A stretch of 64,000 nt of DNA from Escherichia coli O127:H6 str. E2348/69 (GTDB lineage Bacteria; Pseudomonadota; Gammaproteobacteria; Enterobacterales; Enterobacteriaceae): the NCBI RefSeq assembly GCF_000026545.1, contig NC_011601.1. The stretch is one strand, 5' to 3'. The position numbers and the translations under genes are program-made. Position 1 is the first letter of the stretch, and each line of letters opens with the position of its first letter. The notes below the pieces were generated by a model that ran no database searches, was not told the origin of the DNA, and worked only from the letters and a program-made list of their open reading frames with translations. Below, piece after piece: positions 2,609 through 42,024 of this stretch.

Positions 2609-3790
2609 ATGACTAACAGCAATCGCATCAAGCTCACATGGATTAGCTTTCTTTCCTACGCACTGACCGGTGCGTTGGTTATTGTCACCGGGATGGTGAT
2701 GGGAAATATCGCCGATTATTTCAATCTGCCTGTTTCCAGCATGAGTAACACCTTCACCTTCCTCAATGCCGGCATTTTAATCTCTATCTTCCTCAACGCC
2801 TGGCTGATGGAAATCGTCCCGTTGAAAACGCAGTTACGTTTTGGCTTTCTCCTGATGGTGCTGGCGGTTGCCGGTTTGATGTTCAGCCACAGCCTGGCGC
2901 TGTTCTCGGCGGCGATGTTCATTCTCGGGGTGGTCAGCGGCATCACCATGTCGATTGGTACATTCCTGGTAACACAAATGTATGAAGGACGTCAGCGCGG
3001 TTCACGCCTGTTATTTACCGACTCCTTCTTCAGTATGGCCGGGATGATTTTCCCAATGATCGCCGCGTTTCTGCTGGCACGTAGCATTGAGTGGTACTGG
3101 GTTTATGCCTGCATCGGGCTGGTGTATGTTGCTATTTTTATTCTGACCTTCGGCTGTGAATTCCCGGCACTGGGCAAACATGCGCCAAAAACAGATGCTC
3201 CGGTAGAGAAAGAAAAGTGGGGGATCGGCGTACTGTTTCTCTCTGTTGCGGCGCTGTGCTACATCCTCGGTCAGTTAGGTTTTATCTCCTGGGTGCCAGA
3301 ATATGCCAAAGGTCTGGGTATGAGCCTGAATGACGCTGGCACGCTGGTAAGTAACTTCTGGATGTCGTACATGGTCGGCATGTGGGCGTTCAGCTTTATT
3401 CTTCGCTTCTTTGATTTGCAGCGCATTCTGACCGTACTGGCTGGTCTGGCTGCGATTCTGATGTACGTCTTTAACACCGGAACACCGGCACATATGGCGT
3501 GGTCAATTCTCGCCCTGGGCTTCTTCTCCAGCGCGATCTATACCACCATCATCACCCTGGGTTCACAGCAGACCAAAGTACCGTCGCCAAAACTGGTTAA
3601 CTTTGTCCTGACCTGCGGGACCATCGGTACTATGTTGACCTTTGTGGTTACCGGCCCGATTGTTGAACATAGTGGTCCGCAGGCGGCGCTGCTGACGGCA
3701 AACGGTCTGTACGCTGTCGTCTTTGTGATGTGCTTCCTGTTAGGTTTCGTCAGCCGTCACCGTCAGCATAACACCCTGACCTCTCATTAA
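2609..3790 (+). CDS. tsgA: MFS-family inner-membrane transporter TsgA, 393 aa
   Basis: ORF 2609..3790 (+), 393 aa, multi-pass hydrophobic protein; divergent from ppiA and upstream of nirB as in E. coli. Confidence 0.9.
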
Positions 3791-3950
3791 TTGTTCATGC
3801 CGGGCGGCACTATCGTCGTCCGGCCTTTTCCTCTCTTACTCTGCTACGTACATCTATTTATATAAATCCGTTCAATTTGTCTGTTTTTTGCACAAACATG
3901 AAATGTCAGACAATTCCGTGACTTAAGAAAATTTATACAAATCAGCAACA

Positions 3951-3966
3951 TACCCCTTAAGGAGTA
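3951..3966 (+). promoter_or_regulatory. NarL/NarP 7-2-7 heptamer pair in the nirB promoter (about -69.5)
   Basis: Sequence TACCCCTTAAGGAGTA is an inverted heptamer pair (TACCCCT / AGGAGTA); its centre lies 28 bp upstream of the centre of the FNR box, the spacing expected for the nirB promoter. Confidence 0.7.
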
Positions 3967-3979
3967 TATAAAGGTGAAT

Positions 3980-3993
3980 TTGATTTACATCAA
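3980..3993 (+). promoter_or_regulatory. FNR binding site (TTGAT-N4-ATCAA) of the nirB promoter, about -41.5
   Basis: Perfect TTGATttacATCAA at 3980-3993; a TAAGGT -10-like hexamer about 28 bp downstream; nirB ATG at 4052. Confidence 0.85.
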
Positions 3994-4051
3994 TAAGCGG
4001 GGTTGCTGAATCGTTAAGGTAGGCGGTAATAGAAAAGAAATCGAGGCAAAA

Positions 4052-6595
4052 ATGAGCAAAGTCAGACTCGCAATTATCGGTAACGGTATGGTCGGCCATC
4101 GCTTTATCGAAGATCTTCTTGATAAATCTGATGCGGCCAACTTTGATATTACCGTTTTCTGTGAAGAACCGCGCATCGCTTATGACCGCGTACACCTCTC
4201 GTCTTACTTCTCTCACCACACCGCCGAAGAGCTGTCGCTGGTGCGCGAAGGCTTCTACGAGAAACACGGCATCAAAGTTCTGGTCGGCGAACGCGCTATC
4301 ACCATCAACCGTCAGGAGAAGGTGATTCACTCCAGCGCCGGACGTACCGTTTTTTATGACAAGCTGATCATGGCGACCGGTTCCTACCCGTGGATCCCGC
4401 CAATTAAAGGTTCTGATACTCAGGACTGCTTTGTCTATCGCACCATTGAAGACCTCAACGCCATTGAATCCTGCGCTCGTCGCAGCAAGCGCGGTGCCGT
4501 TGTTGGTGGCGGCCTGTTAGGTCTGGAAGCTGCTGGCGCGCTGAAAAACTTAGGCATTGAAACCCACGTTATCGAATTTGCCCCTATGCTGATGGCGGAA
4601 CAGCTTGATCAGATGGGCGGCGAGCAGCTGCGTCGCAAAATCGAAAGTATGGGCGTGCGCGTTCACACCAGCAAAAACACTCTTGAGATTGTGCAGGAAG
4701 GTGTTGAAGCGCGTAAAACCATGCGTTTTGCCGACGGCAGCGAACTGGAAGTCGACTTTATCGTCTTCTCTACCGGTATCCGTCCGCGCGATAAGCTGGC
4801 AACCCAGTGTGGTCTGGACGTTGCTCCGCGTGGGGGTATCGTCATAAATGATTCCTGCCAGACTTCCGATCCGGATATCTACGCCATCGGTGAATGCGCA
4901 AGCTGGAACAACCGTGTATTTGGTCTGGTAGCACCAGGCTACAAAATGGCGCAGGTCGCCGTTGACCATATTCTTGGTAGCGAAAACGCCTTTGAAGGTG
5001 CAGACCTTAGCGCCAAGCTGAAACTGCTGGGCGTAGACGTAGGCGGTATTGGTGATGCGCACGGTCGCACGCCTGGCGCACGTAGCTACGTTTACCTCGA
5101 CGAAAGCAAAGAGATCTACAAACGCCTGATTGTCAGCGAAGACAACAAGACGCTGCTCGGTGCGGTACTGGTGGGCGATACCAGCGACTACGGCAACCTG
5201 CTGCAACTGGTGCTGAACGCTATCGAACTGCCGGAAAACCCGGATTCTCTGATTCTGCCAGCGCACTCGGGTAGCGGTAAGCCGTCTATCGGTGTTGATA
5301 AACTGCCGGACAGTGCGCAAATCTGCTCCTGCTTCGACGTCACCAAAGGCGATCTGATTGCTGCTATCAACAAAGGCTGCCACACCGTTGCGGCGCTGAA
5401 AGCCGAAACCAAAGCGGGTACTGGCTGCGGTGGCTGTATCCCGCTGGTCACTCAGGTACTGAACGCGGAACTGGCGAAACAGGGCATCGAAGTTAACAAC
5501 AACCTGTGCGAACACTTTGCTTATTCGCGTCAGGAACTGTTCCATTTGATCCGCGTTGAAGGCATTAAAACCTTCGAAGAACTGCTGGCGAAACACGGCA
5601 AAGGTTACGGTTGTGAAGTTTGTAAACCGACCGTCGGTTCGCTGCTGGCCTCCTGCTGGAACGAATACATTCTGAAGCCGGAACATACTCCGCTGCAGGA
5701 TTCTAACGACAACTTCCTCGCGAACATCCAGAAAGACGGCACCTACTCGGTGATCCCGCGTTCTCCGGGCGGTGAAATCACCCCGGAAGGGCTGATGGCA
5801 GTGGGTCGTATCGCGCGTGAATTTAATCTCTACACCAAAATCACCGGCTCTCAGCGCCTGGCGATGTTTGGCGCACAGAAAGACGATCTGCCAGAGATCT
5901 GGCGTCAACTGATTGAAGCCGGCTTCGAAACCGGTCATGCCTATGCGAAAGCACTGCGTATGGCGAAAACCTGCGTGGGTAGCACCTGGTGCCGCTATGG
6001 CGTTGGCGACAGCGTCGGCCTCGGCGTGGAACTGGAAAATCGCTACAAAGGCATCCGTACGCCGCACAAAATGAAGTTCGGTGTCTCCGGCTGTACCCGT
6101 GAATGTTCAGAAGCTCAGGGTAAAGACGTGGGTATTATCGCCACTGAAAAAGGCTGGAACCTGTATGTTTGCGGTAACGGCGGCATGAAACCGCGTCATG
6201 CGGATCTGCTGGCAGCGGATATCGATCGCGAAACGCTGATTAAATATCTTGACCGCTTCATGATGTTCTACATCCGTACTGCCGACAAACTGACGCGTAC
6301 CGCGCCGTGGTTAGAAAACCTCGAAGGTGGCATCGATTACCTGAAAGCGGTGATCATTGACGACAAACTGGGGCTGAACGCACATCTGGAAGAAGAGATG
6401 GCGCGCCTGCGTGAAGCGGTAGTATGTGAGTGGACTGAGACGGTCAATACACCGTCCGCGCAGACTCGCTTCAAACACTTCATCAACAGCGACAAGCGTG
6501 ACCCGAACGTGCAGATGGTGCCAGAGCGCGAACAGCACCGTCCGGCAACGCCGTATGAACGTATCCCGGTAACTCTGGTGGAGGACAACGCATGA
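4052..6595 (+). CDS. nirB: NADH-dependent nitrite reductase large subunit NirB, 847 aa
   Basis: ORF 4052..6595 (+), 847 aa; N-terminal FAD/NAD Rossmann motif (LAIIGNGMVGHRF), siroheme/Fe-S Cys clusters near the C-terminus; stop overlaps the nirD start. Confidence 0.96.
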   Translation: MSKVRLAIIGNGMVGHRFIEDLLDKSDAANFDITVFCEEPRIAYDRVHLSSYFSHHTAEELSLVREGFYEKHGIKVLVGERAITINRQEKVIHSSAGRTVFYDKLIMATGSYPWIPPIKGSDTQDCFVYRTIEDLNAIESCARRSKRGAVVGGGLLGLEAAGALKNLGIETHVIEFAPMLMAEQLDQMGGEQLRRKIESMGVRVHTSKNTLEIVQEGVEARKTMRFADGSELEVDFIVFSTGIRPRDKLATQCGLDVAPRGGIVINDSCQTSDPDIYAIGECASWNNRVFGLVAPGYKMAQVAVDHILGSENAFEGADLSAKLKLLGVDVGGIGDAHGRTPGARSYVYLDESKEIYKRLIVSEDNKTLLGAVLVGDTSDYGNLLQLVLNAIELPENPDSLILPAHSGSGKPSIGVDKLPDSAQICSCFDVTKGDLIAAINKGCHTVAALKAETKAGTGCGGCIPLVTQVLNAELAKQGIEVNNNLCEHFAYSRQELFHLIRVEGIKTFEELLAKHGKGYGCEVCKPTVGSLLASCWNEYILKPEHTPLQDSNDNFLANIQKDGTYSVIPRSPGGEITPEGLMAVGRIAREFNLYTKITGSQRLAMFGAQKDDLPEIWRQLIEAGFETGHAYAKALRMAKTCVGSTWCRYGVGDSVGLGVELENRYKGIRTPHKMKFGVSGCTRECSEAQGKDVGIIATEKGWNLYVCGNGGMKPRHADLLAADIDRETLIKYLDRFMMFYIRTADKLTRTAPWLENLEGGIDYLKAVIIDDKLGLNAHLEEEMARLREAVVCEWTETVNTPSAQTRFKHFINSDKRDPNVQMVPEREQHRPATPYERIPVTLVEDNA

Positions 6596-12544: not shown

Positions 12545-13423
12545 TTATTGGAAAAATTGAGAGGGATTTTCACGTAACATCACATCCACATCGGCCTGAC
12601 TGAATCCTGACTGGCGCAATTGCGGAATAAAAGTGGTCAATAAAAAGTCATAGCCATAACCACCGTTGGCTTTTAAATGAGAGCGCCGCGTAATATCCAT
12701 CGACAGCATGACGCGATTCAGCACCCCACGGTCACGTAGCGCATGGAGCATCGCAATGCGCTTTTCGTCCGGGTAGTAACTGTTCTTGCCGATGGTGTCG
12801 AACTGCACATACGCGCCGAGATCGATCATCTTCAAAATGTTGTCGAGATTGTCTTTCAGATCGCAGTGGCCGACGGTGACGCGCGAAAGATCAACTCCGT
12901 GGGCTTGCAACAGAGCCAGTTGCTCCAGCCCCATCGTGCTGAACGACGTATGCGTGGAGATCGGGCGTCCGGTCTGGTTATGTGCCAGCGCGGCGGCAAT
13001 AAACACCTTCTCTTCCAGCGACGTAATCTTCCCTTCGCTGGAGCCGATCTCCGCGATAATTCCGGCTTTCAGGTCAGTGCCATCGATACCCTGCTCAATT
13101 TCATCGACCATCTCCTGCGCCAGTTCCTGCACGCTGCGGGTCGCCACATGTTCCGGGAAAAACGCGTCCTGGTAATAACCGGTACAGGCCACCACGTTGA
13201 TCCCGGTTTCGCGCATTACATCGAGCATAAATTGCGCATTGCGCCCCATGTAACGGTTGGTCATCTCAATCACATTACGCACGCCCCGGGCCATCAGGTC
13301 GTTCATCTCCTGGCAAATGAACGCATACTGATCAAGGCGGCAGTCCACGTTGTTTTTAAAGCCGGAAAGATCAATATGCAGATGCTCATGGGCGAGCGTG
13401 TAGCCCGTCGGATCAAAACTCAT
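12545..13423 (-). CDS. php: Phosphotriesterase homology protein Php (amidohydrolase-superfamily binuclear metal hydrolase), 292 aa
   Basis: ORF 12545..13423 (-), 292 aa; N-terminal HxH metal-ligand motif ([11 protein letters not shown]) typical of the amidohydrolase/PTE fold. Confidence 0.9.
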
Positions 13424-39143: not shown

Positions 39144-39162
39144 TCAGCTGATATCTCATTGA

Positions 39163-39193
39163 CCCCTTATCCAAACGGATAAGGGGTTTTTTT
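39163..39193 (+). terminator. Rho-independent terminator after pckA
   Basis: ccccttatcc-aaac-ggataagggg followed by ttttttt. Confidence 0.85.
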
Positions 39194-39252
39194 ATATCTA
39201 ATTAGCTACCAATATGTACACTTATAATTATCAATAGACCGCAGGATGCATT

Positions 39253-39569
39253 ATGTTCACCTTTATTGAACTACAAGGATTTAGCAAACGCCGCCAGTTA
39301 TTGCTACCTGATAAGTAGTTCCGGGCTTTTCAGGAACTACTCATTCAAGATCCCACTGCCGGTGACATTATCGCAGGCACAGGCAGTTTTAGAAAAATTC
39401 GCTGGAACCGTTCTGGAATGGGGAAACGGGGTGCATTCGGATAATTTATTACAACGTAACACGCAATGGCCGAATTTATCTGGCGTTGATTTATCCTAAA
39501 AATGAACAGGATGATTTAACAGAAGAACAAAGAAAGGCATTGAAACTATTGTCCGAGAAGCTGCTTTAA
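39253..39569 (+). pseudogene. Disrupted RelE/ParE-superfamily (HigB-2-like) toxin gene: in-frame TAG at codon 22 plus a -1 frameshift
   Basis: Frame 1 from ATG 39253 reads MFTFIELQGFSKRRQLLLPDK* (TAG at 39316-39318) and resumes FRAFQELLIQDPTAGDIIAGTGSFRKIRWNRSGMGKRGAFG*. A different frame from about 39432 reads CIRIIYYNVTRNGRIYLALIYPKNEQDDLTEEQRKALKLLSEKLL*. Together these resemble a roughly 105-aa HigB-2-type toxin (GTGxxRKxR...GKRGGxRxIYY motifs, recalled from memory). The total span is 317 nt, i.e. 318-1. Confidence 0.6.
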
Positions 39570-39627
39570 TGTTGAAGCTCCACAAATTCCACCATGGCCG
39601 AAATGCCAACGGAGGCATTGAAAACAG

Positions 39628-39924
39628 ATGAAAGATGAATTATTTGCTGATCTTCTTGCCAGCGCAGAAGAAATGGTACGCATCGAAAAGGGTGAAGAAA
39701 CGCCTGAACCAGAGCACGTCCATACTTTTAGCGAAATCGATGTAAAAGCGATCCGTGAAGCAACGGGTTTACGTCAGCAAGATTTTGCTGTCGCCGTAGG
39801 GGTAAGTTATGACCTGGTCAAAAGCTGGGAAACCAAACGCCGTCAGCCTACCGGAGCACCCCGAAAATTGCTCCTGCTTTTGCAAGCGAATCCTTTCATT
39901 ATCAATCAATTGAAAACAATCTAA
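39628..39924 (+). CDS. HTH (XRE-like) antitoxin-type DNA-binding protein, HigA-2-like, 98 aa, apparently intact
   Basis: ORF 39628..39924 (+), 98 aa: MKDELFADLLASAEEMVRIEKGEETPEPEHVHTFSEIDVKAIREATGLRQQDFAVAVGVSYDLVKSWETKRRQPTGAPRKLLLLLQANPFIINQLKTI; GGAGG ribosome-binding site 12 nt upstream; HTH segment LRQQDFAVAVGVSYDLVKSWE; lies directly downstream of the toxin remnant. Confidence 0.7.
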   Translation: MKDELFADLLASAEEMVRIEKGEETPEPEHVHTFSEIDVKAIREATGLRQQDFAVAVGVSYDLVKSWETKRRQPTGAPRKLLLLLQANPFIINQLKTI

Positions 39925-39953
39925 AAACGGGAGGCACCTTCACCTCCCGTTTT
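39924..39953. terminator. Bidirectional hairpin terminator shared by the antitoxin gene and convergent envZ
   Basis: aaaacgggagg-caccttca-cctcccgtttt (11-bp stem flanked by A and T runs); the envZ stop is at 39956. Confidence 0.8.
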
Positions 39954-39955
39954 AT

Positions 39956-42024
<2,069 letters not shown>

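Follow-up and report, generated by a model that had tools for sequence, protein, structure and literature searches.

A probable case of toxin-first decay in a HigBA2-type cassette between pckA and envZ of Escherichia coli

Between pckA and envZ, the chromosome of Escherichia coli O127:H6 E2348/69 carries a disrupted toxin gene followed by a whole antitoxin gene, within the 64,000-nucleotide stretch of contig NC_011601.1 that we analysed (hereafter the window). This arrangement raises the question of why an antitoxin gene should remain open beside a toxin gene that has been broken. Our results indicate that the locus is very probably a partly decayed chromosomal type II toxin-antitoxin cassette, of the HigBA2 type known from Vibrio cholerae. 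That the toxin is dead and nadS whole is already known from public annotation, since RefSeq/PGAP lists at the same coordinates a [quoted passage not shown] and a "NadS family protein" (in NZ_CP059840.2, toxin pseudogene H4J01_RS25260 and nadS H4J01_RS01895). New with respect to that annotation are a deletion in the promoter/operator region, the distribution of the lesions among lineages, and the finding that other genera carry the cassette at this site too.

The cassette and its relation to HigBA2

Alignment with K-12 showed that flanking homology breaks at 39144 and returns at 39924, delimiting a two-gene cassette of 779 bp (39145-39923) that K-12 does not have, and in place of which K-12 has 43 unrelated bp (Table 1). 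The short K-12 spacer that the earlier note gave for this position is indeed 75 bp in MG1655, and the toxin-then-antitoxin module that it placed between the pckA and envZ terminators was likewise found, with the toxin (39253-39569) followed on the same strand by the antitoxin (39628-39924) across a 58-nt spacer that holds no terminator. The hairpin of the pckA terminator is part of the cassette; K-12 lacks it and has only the envZ-side hairpin, and a homologous hairpin lies 3' of pckA in Citrobacter, Kluyvera and Pluralibacter. An Rfam scan of the locus gave no RNA family close to threshold, PADLOC gave no specific defence-system match, and sensitive blastn found no DNA paralogue of the cassette in any E. 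coli genome. The two genes are bridged by a 20-aa ORF (39569-39631), whose start overlaps the toxin stop (TAATG) and whose stop overlaps the nadS start (ATGA). We considered this ORF as a device for translational coupling and rejected it as a chance occurrence that is not kept in Citrobacter, Klebsiella and Pseudescherichia.

Table 1. Features of the pckA-envZ interval, in window coordinates.
Feature	Position	Strand	Basis or remark
pckA end	39143		
pckA intrinsic terminator	39161..39195	+	12-bp stem (6 G-C pairs), 4-nt loop, T-run
TGTACA, remnant of the 13-bp palindrome TGTACacgGTACA (putative NadS/HigA-2 operator)	39215..39220	+	alignments with intact alleles
-10 hexamer TATAAT of the predicted cassette promoter	39223..39228	+	read from sequence
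HigB-2-type (PF06296, RelE-fold) toxin pseudogene	39253..39569	+	PGAP pseudogene; Pfam; PDB HigB-2
Quasi-palindrome, arms 39311-39322 and 39333-39344	39311..39344	+	repeat search
Lesion 1: GAT GAG to AAG TAG, three substitutions, stop at codon 22	39313..39318	+	
Lesion 2: one G missing in codon 61, GGT GGC to GGT GC, -1 frameshift	39433 (about)	+	comparison with intact alleles
Toxin-antitoxin spacer with antitoxin Shine-Dalgarno GGAGG (39611-39615)	39570..39627	+	
nadS, intact HigA-2-type antitoxin, N-terminal toxin-neutralising segment and C-terminal XRE HTH	39628..39924	+	
Hairpin terminator shared in position by nadS and envZ	39924..39953	.	terminator-like on the envZ strand (scan); K-12 has the same
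envZ end	39956	minus	

The repaired toxin frame encodes 105 aa from the ATG at 39253, and its proposed HigB-2/RelE-like identity was borne out by a Pfam scan, in which the repaired frame matched PF06296 with E=4.7e-5 and the intact allele with E=1e-5. Both sequences matched this family only, with no match to a HigB/Plasmid_killer family, and the toxin had no NCBIfam match. The intact E. coli allele (WP_000493756.1 in other strains) aligned with V. cholerae HigB-2 from the PDB over residues 3-100 (E=1.3e-23), and homologues in the protein database bear both PF06296 and the name "Toxin HigB-2". Mutagenesis of the V. cholerae toxin has identified R51, R64, Y82 and K84 as important residues (PMC5416850). 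In the alignment, their counterparts in the intact E. coli toxin are R50, R63, Y81 and K83, and the window retains the codons for all four, each of them located after the stop and three of the four after the frameshift.

The downstream gene, originally read as an intact HTH antitoxin gene, proved to be just that: its 98-aa ORF is uninterrupted, and its product carries HTH_31 and HTH_3 matches at residues 39-76 and scores 75.1 bits against a cut-off of 60 for the NCBIfam equivalog NadS (NF041265), residues 5-96 covering profile positions 3-92 of 94. The match to HigA-2 in the PDB (E=4.9e-5) extends over residues 4-91 and includes the N-terminal helix region. The protein (WP_000650976.1) is identical to the antitoxin that adjoins intact toxins in other strains. 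An assignment to the MqsA-type antitoxins (TIGR03830/PF15731) was rejected, since the score of 31.1 bits falls short of the cut-off (61.8) and the alignment covers no more than the C-terminal HTH half; it is further contradicted by E=0.11 for PF15731 and by the absence of any cysteine, and so of a CxxC motif, from the 98 aa. The ribosome-binding site of nadS, described in the earlier note as good, does have a strong GGAGG core, but it lies 12 nt from the ATG, versus 6 nt in the homologues of Citrobacter, Klebsiella and Pseudescherichia. Our literature search returned no paper defining the name "NadS".

The cassette and V. cholerae HigBA2 (PDB 5JA8, 5JA9, 5JAA, 5J9I, 8A0W and 8A0X) are alike in being toxin-first operons, with a toxin of about 105-110 aa that can be aligned end to end and keeps the four active-site residues in the intact E. 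coli allele, an antitoxin of about 100 aa whose N-terminal neutralising segment can likewise be aligned and whose C-terminal part is an XRE HTH, and a single inverted-repeat operator (putative in E. coli) at or over the -10 with the outer pentamers TGTAC and GTACA. They differ in that the E2348/69 toxin is a pseudogene and the putative operator is deleted. They also differ in setting: the E2348/69 cassette lies between two core genes, whereas the V. cholerae module is located in the superintegron. The HigBA systems of K-12 (YgjN/YgjM) and Proteus vulgaris Rts1 share with the cassette the name, the reversed gene order, a RelE-superfamily toxin and an HTH antitoxin, but their toxin belongs to another family, the cassette toxin matching PF06296 only, and the mode of neutralisation differs between the two types (PMC5416850). 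The "higBA" that Norton and Mulvey deleted in CFT073 is a different locus, and their knockout primers do not match cassette DNA. In the literature we found no experimentally tested E. coli member of the HigBA2 type, and no paper on a pckA-envZ toxin-antitoxin module or on an E. coli HigB-2.

Distribution and age of the cassette

In a sample of 5,426 complete E. coli genomes, the cassette was present in 1,328-1,330 (about 24.5%) and the K-12-type short spacer in 4,074. Strains with an intact cassette exist, D5 and MRSN346647 among them. The pckA-envZ interval also holds the cassette in E. albertii, in Citrobacter (three species), in Kluyvera (two species) and in one Pluralibacter MAG. The description of the insert as strain-specific, given in the earlier note, is thus overturned both by its frequency within E. 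coli and by its presence at the same site in other genera. Since that site is occupied across genera, the short spacer of K-12 is probably the derived state, reflecting the loss from K-12 of an old cassette. Two apparently divergent E. coli loci were set aside, those of HS-02 and BS-04, which both carry "hypothetical proteins" at this site. The HS-02 sequence is homopolymer-ridden noise of assembly, and in BS-04, a genome of the same project, alignment breaks down over the same interior stretch, which is probably the same artefact.

The opposite history, in which the pckA-envZ spacer was short ancestrally and the cassette entered it recently in one lineage, is doubtful in our assessment. It would accord with the short spacer in 4,074 of the 5,426 genomes. 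The unit can evidently move, as Klebsiella variicola and Pseudescherichia vulneris have homologous cassettes at sites unrelated to this one, and pS between E. albertii and E. coli is 0.05-0.10 for the cassette against 0.26 for pckA, which points to recent exchange. Against such an insertion stands the shared position in Citrobacter, Kluyvera, Pluralibacter and E. albertii, accompanied by a homologous pckA terminator hairpin. Between genera, moreover, synonymous divergence of the cassette is at least that of the flanks (pS of 0.69-0.82 for the cassette genes versus 0.48-0.64 for the flanking genes), and the alleles within E. coli diverge by up to about 3%, as core genes do. A search for mobility genes, target duplications, and plasmid or phage copies of the cassette found none. 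The apparent plasmid matches were entries of 0.57-5.4 Mb deposited as plasmids, among them two Pantoea entries of about 0.7 Mb with only weak partial matches; no phage DNA matched the cassette, and protein homologues at about 40% identity were present in nine phage records.

Three lesions in the toxin gene and its promoter region

The window holds no uninterrupted, translatable toxin gene. Both lesions reported for it by the earlier note are present, the TAG at codon 22 (39316-39318, in frame from the ATG at 39253) and the -1 frameshift within 39430-39441. The nonsense lesion is not a single point mutation; three substitutions lie together there (GATGAG to AAGTAG), within one arm of a quasi-palindrome. 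Of the 12 arm positions, 10 pair in the intact allele, and the two mismatches are adjacent; in the mutant allele both mismatches have been "corrected", thereby creating the TAG. When folded as single-stranded DNA, the observed allele has a calculated energy of -7.2 kcal/mol, between those of the intact allele (-5.6) and the fully templated product (-11). The intermediate allele predicted by hairpin templating, GATGAGTAG, occurred in none of the 1,328 carrier genomes; templating may therefore explain two of the three substitutions, and we offer it as a hypothesis that leaves the third, G to A at 39313, unaccounted for.

The stop allele, recognised as an exact 81-mer, was present in 106 of the 1,328 carriers. 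About 106 genomes have in common both the stop and a deletion in the putative operator, and these include CFT073, Nissle 1917 and ATCC 25922, with ABU 83972 falling in the same group. The frameshift was restricted to three of the 1,328 carriers, all of them independent, separately deposited assemblies of E2348/69 (O127:H6). Nissle-type genomes have the stop and lack the frameshift, and the two lesions are therefore separate events.

The loss of the putative operator palindrome is a third lesion, which the earlier note overlooked. One 7-bp unit (GTACACG) has been deleted at 39215/16, with a junction that is ambiguous within 39215-39222, and the deletion allele was found in 102 genomes exactly and in five more nearly so. 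The exact palindrome is present in all of the intact-toxin E. coli loci that were fetched and in none of the stop-allele loci. Its conservation beyond E. coli could be observed directly: TGTAC-N3-GTACA occurs in 18 of 18 homologous loci with enough upstream DNA, from several genera, with invariant arms and a variable centre, and a second copy lies about 30 bp farther upstream in 10 of the 18. The -10 sits 2 nt downstream of the palindrome in every homologue. A consensus scan of the plus strand called no full -35/-10 pair and no sigma-70 promoter in either allele, so that the promoter is assigned from its perfect -10 and from the cross-species alignment.

These observations suggest that TGTAC-N3-GTACA is most likely the operator of the antitoxin. 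The experimentally mapped operator of V. cholerae HigA2, TGTACGC-N5-GCGTACA, extends from after the -35 across the -10 (PMC11006873), and thus has 7-bp arms and a 5-bp centre where the putative E. coli operator has 5-bp arms and a 3-bp centre. The base-contacting residues also differ at three of four positions, R68, E71, N72 and R77 of the V. cholerae protein corresponding to D62, K65, S66 and R71 of NadS. Because both the contact residues and the half-site spacing differ, the operator assignment rests on conservation and position, together with the existence of the V. cholerae operator, and not on a transfer of the V. cholerae contacts. In the window the inverted-repeat candidate has been cut to TGTACA, and there is no TGTAC-N3-GTACA, even with one mismatch allowed, anywhere in the 64 kb. 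The loss of the palindrome weakens the case for a retained regulatory role of the antitoxin, at least on its own promoter.

By analogy with the V. cholerae homologue, the intact form of the cassette would be transcribed from a promoter just 3' of the pckA terminator, toxin first and antitoxin second. The intact toxin would be a ribosome-dependent mRNA endonuclease, and the disordered N-terminus of the antitoxin would fold onto it and neutralise it, while the C-terminal HTH dimer would bind TGTAC-N3-GTACA abutting the -10 and repress the promoter. In one E. coli sublineage, comprising E2348/69, the CFT073/Nissle 1917/ABU 83972/ATCC 25922 group and their relatives, the stop and the deletion in the putative operator became fixed. 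The three-base change at codon 22 includes two bases of the kind expected from hairpin-templated "correction" of the quasi-palindrome. Half of the operator was probably removed by slippage between the direct repeats GTACAC(G)GTACAC, and with these 7 bp gone everything upstream lies 7 bp nearer the -10. E2348/69 later dropped one further base in toxin codon 61. As a result, no toxin can be made.

Persistence of the antitoxin gene and its meaning

The antitoxin of such a pair is known to be dispensable only once the toxin is dead. With the toxin dead and the operator gone, nadS most likely persists only through this constraint on the order of loss: it could not have been lost before the toxin, and too little time would have passed since then for it to decay. 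The order constraint therefore explains the intact orphan without invoking selection. The earlier note had presented an orphaned antitoxin as the expected product of selection against an active toxin, and had suggested that it may retain a role as a transcription factor. Neither view drew support from our tests, polymorphism in the stop clade being too low, and the order constraint suffices. The same pattern is seen in decaying chromosomal toxin-antitoxin loci in general, in which the toxin has been hit by nonsense, frameshift or deletion mutations while the antitoxin ORF stays open, and nothing is unusual here except that the operator was lost too.

A domesticated orphan, in which nadS is kept by selection as a transcription factor for other genes or as anti-addiction immunity, is in our judgement unlikely. 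In the variant based on immunity, NadS would neutralise HigB-2-type toxins arriving on phages or plasmids. In either variant, loss of the operator would make its expression constitutive. A few phage records do contain distant HigB-2 homologues (about 40% identity), and PHROG families are matched by the toxin and the antitoxin alike. The gene may well be transcribed, judging from the perfect TATAAT -10 and the AT-rich DNA upstream of it, and a PGAP-named nadS of K-12 has been reported as expressed (PMC12350097). We found nadS intact in 11 of 11 sampled stop-allele genomes, an observation that also fits purifying selection; however, these genomes show four polymorphic sites in all (three synonymous and one conservative change), too few substitutions for a test of constraint. 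Estimates of dN/dS, in which intergeneric dS is saturated, point to strong constraint on NadS overall, with a median of 0.04, and are still 0.03-0.12 for the orphan copies in other genera. The toxin has been independently disrupted beside a full-length nadS at 8 of 25 loci of other species, a count from a scan that demanded an intact nadS 5' end and to which decayed antitoxins were thus invisible. Among these loci is that of K. sichuanensis, in which the promoter and operator are retained and the toxin is internally deleted. Such a toxin-first state is forced by lethality and needs no selection on the antitoxin. In the stop clade, furthermore, the only recognisable NadS site has been destroyed, with no other in the window, and the geometry of the promoter has been altered by 7 bp, which resembles loss of the whole unit more than the upkeep of one part. 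A still less probable proposal is that toxin death and operator deletion in the CFT073/Nissle/E2348-69 sublineage produced an unregulated, constitutive orphan NadS kept by selection, as immunity or as a regulator, and that the recurrent toxin-dead loci of other Enterobacteriaceae represent the same domestication.

There is a negligible chance that the pair is really intact and that both coding lesions arose in sequencing or assembly, a possibility raised in the earlier note. The short G-rich run around the frameshift, GGGGTGGC, is indeed of a kind in which indel errors are frequent, but the frameshift is identical in the three E2348/69 assemblies, 106 complete genomes produced by many laboratories agree on the stop allele, and in Nissle-type genomes the stop occurs without the frameshift. 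Nor is there any real likelihood of a functional toxin made by recoding, through read-through of the TAG and a programmed +1/-1 shift at codon 61, for which nothing speaks beyond a downstream frame still open up to the original stop, and which would require two independent recoding events at lesions of different age and in different lineages, with no slippery heptamer or stimulatory structure at 39425-39440.

Decay of a HigBA2-type module, with the toxin and the operator going first and the antitoxin last, thus remains the best account of this locus, and we infer that little or no function is left in it. As ordinary gene decay, the finding matters little beyond correct annotation. The locus nevertheless offers a tidy and datable example of such decay, in strains that serve widely in experimental work (E2348/69, CFT073, Nissle 1917 and ATCC 25922). 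The conserved TGTAC-N3-GTACA provides a concrete, testable operator candidate for the uncharacterised enterobacterial NadS/HigA-2 subfamily, and the natural 7-bp deletion allele could serve as a ready-made negative control for a test of that operator. Should nadS turn out to be expressed and under selection as an orphan, this would be a small case study in antitoxin domestication.

The pckA-envZ module and its toxin gene lesions

The window matched E. coli E2348/69 at 100% identity over the region, and RefSeq (PGAP) labels its two cassette genes 'type II toxin-antitoxin system RelE/ParE family toxin; frameshifted; internal stop' and 'nadS, NadS family protein'. The earlier note had read them as a HigB-2-type toxin gene followed by an intact 98-aa HTH antitoxin gene, and sequence comparisons bore out both identities. 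The product of the intact toxin allele (WP_000493756.1, 105 aa) matched V. cholerae HigB-2 crystal-structure sequences over residues 3-100 (E=1.3e-23) and Pfam PF06296 (E=1e-5), and the window's frame, translated with X in place of the two coding lesions, matched PF06296 at E=4.7e-5. Alanine substitutions demonstrate that R51, R64, Y82 and K84 of VcHigB2 matter for activity (PMC5416850); all four are conserved in the intact E. coli toxin, as R50, R63, Y81 and K83. The antitoxin scored 75.1 bits against a curated NCBIfam NadS cut-off of 60, has an XRE-type HTH at residues 39-76, and matched HigA-2 across residues 4-91 (E=4.9e-5), a stretch that takes in the N-terminal segment responsible for toxin neutralisation in V. 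cholerae. Together, these matches indicate that the module is a HigBA2-type type II toxin-antitoxin pair. It does not belong to the Proteus/K-12 HigBA type, to which no profile match was returned, and an MqsA identity was rejected because the antitoxin scored under the MqsA cut-off and lacks cysteines.

Features of the pckA-envZ interval in E2348/69 (window coordinates)
Feature	Position	Strand	Detail or basis
pckA	ends 39143	+	sequence reading, RefSeq annotation
Direct repeat, copy 1	39151-39160		ATATCTCATT
pckA hairpin terminator, strong	39161-39188 plus T-run		terminator and repeat scans
Direct repeat, copy 2	39194-39203		ATATCTAATT
Lesion 3	39215/39216		seven bases GTACACG missing, promoter region
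-10 hexamer, perfect	39223-39228		TATAAT
Toxin ribosome-binding site	6 nt before ATG 39253		AGGA
Broken toxin frame	from ATG 39253, end 39569		317 nt
Quasi-palindrome arms	39311-39322, 39333-39344		10-nt loop
Lesion 1	39313-39318		GAT GAG to AAG TAG, three substitutions, stop at codon 22
Lesion 2	~39433		one G missing from GGT GGC, codon 61
Toxin-nadS spacer			58 nt
nadS, intact	39628-39924		98 codons
Hairpin abutting both nadS and envZ	39924-39953		terminator score on envZ strand
envZ	39956-41308	-	sequence reading, RefSeq annotation

Several smaller observations concern this layout. The direct repeat, whose copies start 43 bp apart, brackets the pckA terminator hairpin, and the K-12 short spacer has one copy only (ATATCTAT); the repeat could mark an old junction or be due to chance. 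A 20-aa ORF (39569-39631) overlaps the toxin stop with its start (TAATG) and the nadS start with its stop (ATGA); it is unconserved in Citrobacter, Klebsiella and Pseudescherichia spacers and is probably fortuitous. Across genera (L002 against L012, L010 and L014, homologous loci fetched from other genomes), amino acid identity was 89-95% for the antitoxin and 74-82% for the toxin. In type II modules the opposite is expected, the antitoxin being less conserved than the toxin. K-12 BW25113, which lacks the cassette, also has a gene named nadS by PGAP (RS26030), too divergent for a DNA search with the window's nadS and reported as expressed in a transposon-reporter study (PMC12350097).

The toxin frame translates as MFTFIELQGFSKRRQLLLPDK up to the stop and runs on beyond it, with no change of frame, as far as ...GMGKRG, after which the -1 frame leads to ...IRIIYYNVTRNGRIYLALIYPKNEQDDLTEEQRKALKLLSEKLL and a final stop. 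Reading of the window's frames confirmed every coordinate of the earlier note, including those of the stop and the frameshift, but alignment with three other E. coli alleles revealed three lesions and not two, the 7-bp promoter deletion having been absent from its list. The lesions are real. We quantified the alleles among 5,426 complete E. coli genomes with 81-nt probes, for which a 99% identity band is reached by exact matches only. The stop allele occurred in 106 genomes, including CFT073, Nissle 1917, ABU 83972, ATCC 25922 and isolates from dog, bat, sheep and pig, and the promoter deletion in 102 exact and 5 near-exact cases; the frameshift was found in three, all separately deposited E2348/69 assemblies. 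Nissle-type genomes have lesions 1 and 3 without lesion 2. From this distribution we infer that the stop and the promoter deletion, in either order, were fixed in the common ancestor of a sublineage, and that the frameshift is a later addition confined to E2348/69. The window has the intact-allele base at 39440 and 39470, where the other nine sampled stop-allele sequences share derived bases, and E2348/69 is therefore an early branch within this clade.

A quasi-palindrome carries the TAG in its left arm, at a point where D-D-E is encoded by all intact alleles of E. coli, Citrobacter, Klebsiella and Pseudescherichia. Of the 12 arm positions, 10 are paired in intact alleles, and the two mismatches stand side by side; the mutant allele 'corrects' exactly these two, and the correction makes the TAG. 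Predicted single-strand DNA hairpin energies were -5.6 kcal/mol for the intact allele, -7.2 for the observed one and -11 for the fully templated product. For the third substitution of lesion 1 (G to A at 39313) the hairpin offers no template, and the intermediate allele expected from templating was found in none of the genomes searched. A hairpin-templated origin of the stop is plausible but unproven.

Distribution and age of the cassette

E. coli is dimorphic at pckA-envZ: the K-12-type short spacer was present in 4,074 of the 5,426 complete genomes and the cassette in 1,328-1,330, the two forms representing 99.6%. Homology between them breaks right after the pckA stop (39144) and returns at the final base of the nadS stop codon (39924), with 779 bp between these ends in the cassette form and 43 unrelated bp in the short form. 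The arrangement yhgE-pckA-(toxin-nadS)-envZ-ompR-greB, with a homologous pckA terminator hairpin, also occurs in Citrobacter sp. Marseille-Q6884, C. gillenii, C. portucalensis, Kluyvera ascorbata, K. sichuanensis, a Pluralibacter MAG and E. albertii. Between genera, the proportion of synonymous differences was 0.69-0.82 in the cassette genes and 0.48-0.64 in pckA and envZ; divergence no lower than that of the flanks argues against recent transfer. These comparisons favour long occupancy of the pckA-envZ site, the K-12-like majority of E. coli having lost the cassette. The cassette, which the earlier note had called a strain-specific insert, is thus not strain-specific and probably not an insertion, and is better described as an old polymorphic resident.

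E. albertii was an exception to the pattern seen between genera, with synonymous differences from E. coli of 0.05-0.10 in the cassette and 0.26 in adjacent pckA, and the two species may thus have exchanged the cassette recently. The E. albertii locus (L026, NBRC 107761, 3757-4429) encodes a toxin protein 100% identical to that of E. coli, and 3' of its nadS the envZ match is partial and gives way to pckA-like fragments. In Klebsiella and Pseudescherichia, homologous cassettes at unrelated sites indicate that the unit has moved as well; no mobility genes were found, and DNA-level searches gave no copies on plasmids or phages. One apparent variant, E. coli HS-02 (L007, 2140-2615), was rejected: the interior of the locus in this 'complete' genome is homopolymer-ridden noise, in which PGAP calls a lysine/proline-rich 'hypothetical protein'. 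BS-04 (L006, 2105-2614), from the same project, gave no alignment over the same stretch, and both interiors look like assembly artefacts.

A candidate operator in the promoter

The upstream regions of homologous cassettes contain a 13-bp palindrome, TGTAC-N3-GTACA, which stops 2 nt short of the -10 hexamer and was initially spotted in Citrobacter, Klebsiella variicola and Pseudescherichia vulneris. For a wider comparison, one genome per bacterial species was searched with a degenerate pattern based on the opening 32 nt of nadS, which yielded 28 more loci. In all 18 loci where a toxin start could be recognised and the upstream sequence reached 130 nt or more, the exact palindrome was present, its arms invariant and its central triplet variable, and 10 of the 18 had a second copy ~30 bp farther upstream. 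In many homologues the two copies are exactly 30 bp apart and flank the -35 (K. variicola, L010/L011 2919-2961; P. vulneris, L014/L015 2917-2959); all pckA-envZ cassettes keep only the proximal copy, with the pckA terminator in place of the distal one. Footprinting of V. cholerae HigA2 placed its operator at TGTACGC-N5-GCGTACA, extending from after the -35 over the -10 (PMC11006873). The enterobacterial palindrome resembles it in outer pentamers and position but differs in spacing, which is consistent with changes in three of the four base-contacting residues (R68/E71/N72/R77 in VcHigA2, D62/K65/S66/R71 in NadS, from the HigA-2 alignment). We therefore regard the palindrome as a putative NadS operator.

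The palindrome was present in every intact-toxin locus fetched and absent from every stop-allele locus fetched. In the window only TGTACA is left of it, and the sequence 5' of the -10 sits 7 bp nearer, so that neither repression nor the native -35/-10 geometry should survive. Because the palindrome holds a direct repeat, GTACAC-G-GTACAC, replication slippage is the obvious mechanism, and we infer that it produced the deletion.

Persistence of the orphan antitoxin

Persistence of nadS after toxin death could be neutral or could reflect a retained role. While the toxin works its antitoxin cannot be lost, and toxin-first decay is therefore expected without selection. It is conceivable that the orphan has been domesticated: nadS was intact in all 11 stop-allele genomes inspected, its only changes being three synonymous ones and a conservative I42L, the E2348/69 protein is identical to the antitoxin partnering intact toxins, and NadS is in general strongly constrained (median pairwise dN/dS 0.04). 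However, the stop clade arose too recently for constraint to be tested, and dS is saturated between genera. Also in favour of a retained role, the toxin was independently disrupted beside a full-length nadS in 8 of 25 usable loci of the species scan (L053, Kluyvera sichuanensis, 12986-13123; L042, Pluralibacter MAG, 3748-3894; L049, L043, L051, L048, L037 and L045), through internal deletions, truncations, replacement by REP-like DNA, nonsense codons or complete loss, although the scan detects only loci with an intact nadS 5' end and is biased accordingly. L053 and L042 occupy the pckA-envZ site itself, and K. sichuanensis has kept promoter and operator, with toxin codon 17 fused to the toxin 3' end. 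In the E2348/69 lineage, by contrast, the only recognisable candidate binding site of NadS is destroyed, and no other TGTAC-N3-GTACA, even with one mismatch, occurs in the 64-kb window. Weighing these points, we consider neutral persistence more likely than domestication, which is possible but unsupported. Three synonymous nadS polymorphisms within the stop-allele group (39735, 39846 and 39861) also occur in intact-toxin alleles, suggesting recombination inside the cassette or old standing variation.

Systems of the HigBA2 kind are well characterised structurally and biochemically in V. cholerae, and RefSeq already contains the locus, with its toxin gene marked as a pseudogene and its antitoxin labelled NadS. 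We found no paper on the E. coli pckA-envZ module; the CFT073 'higBA' of Norton and Mulvey is, per their primers, a different locus. The finding is real, was mainly read correctly from the sequence in the earlier note, and is ordinary, holding no surprise for a specialist. What this analysis adds is a third lesion, a lineage census, a well-supported operator candidate for the enterobacterial subfamily, and the revision of a supposed strain-specific insert to an old polymorphic resident.
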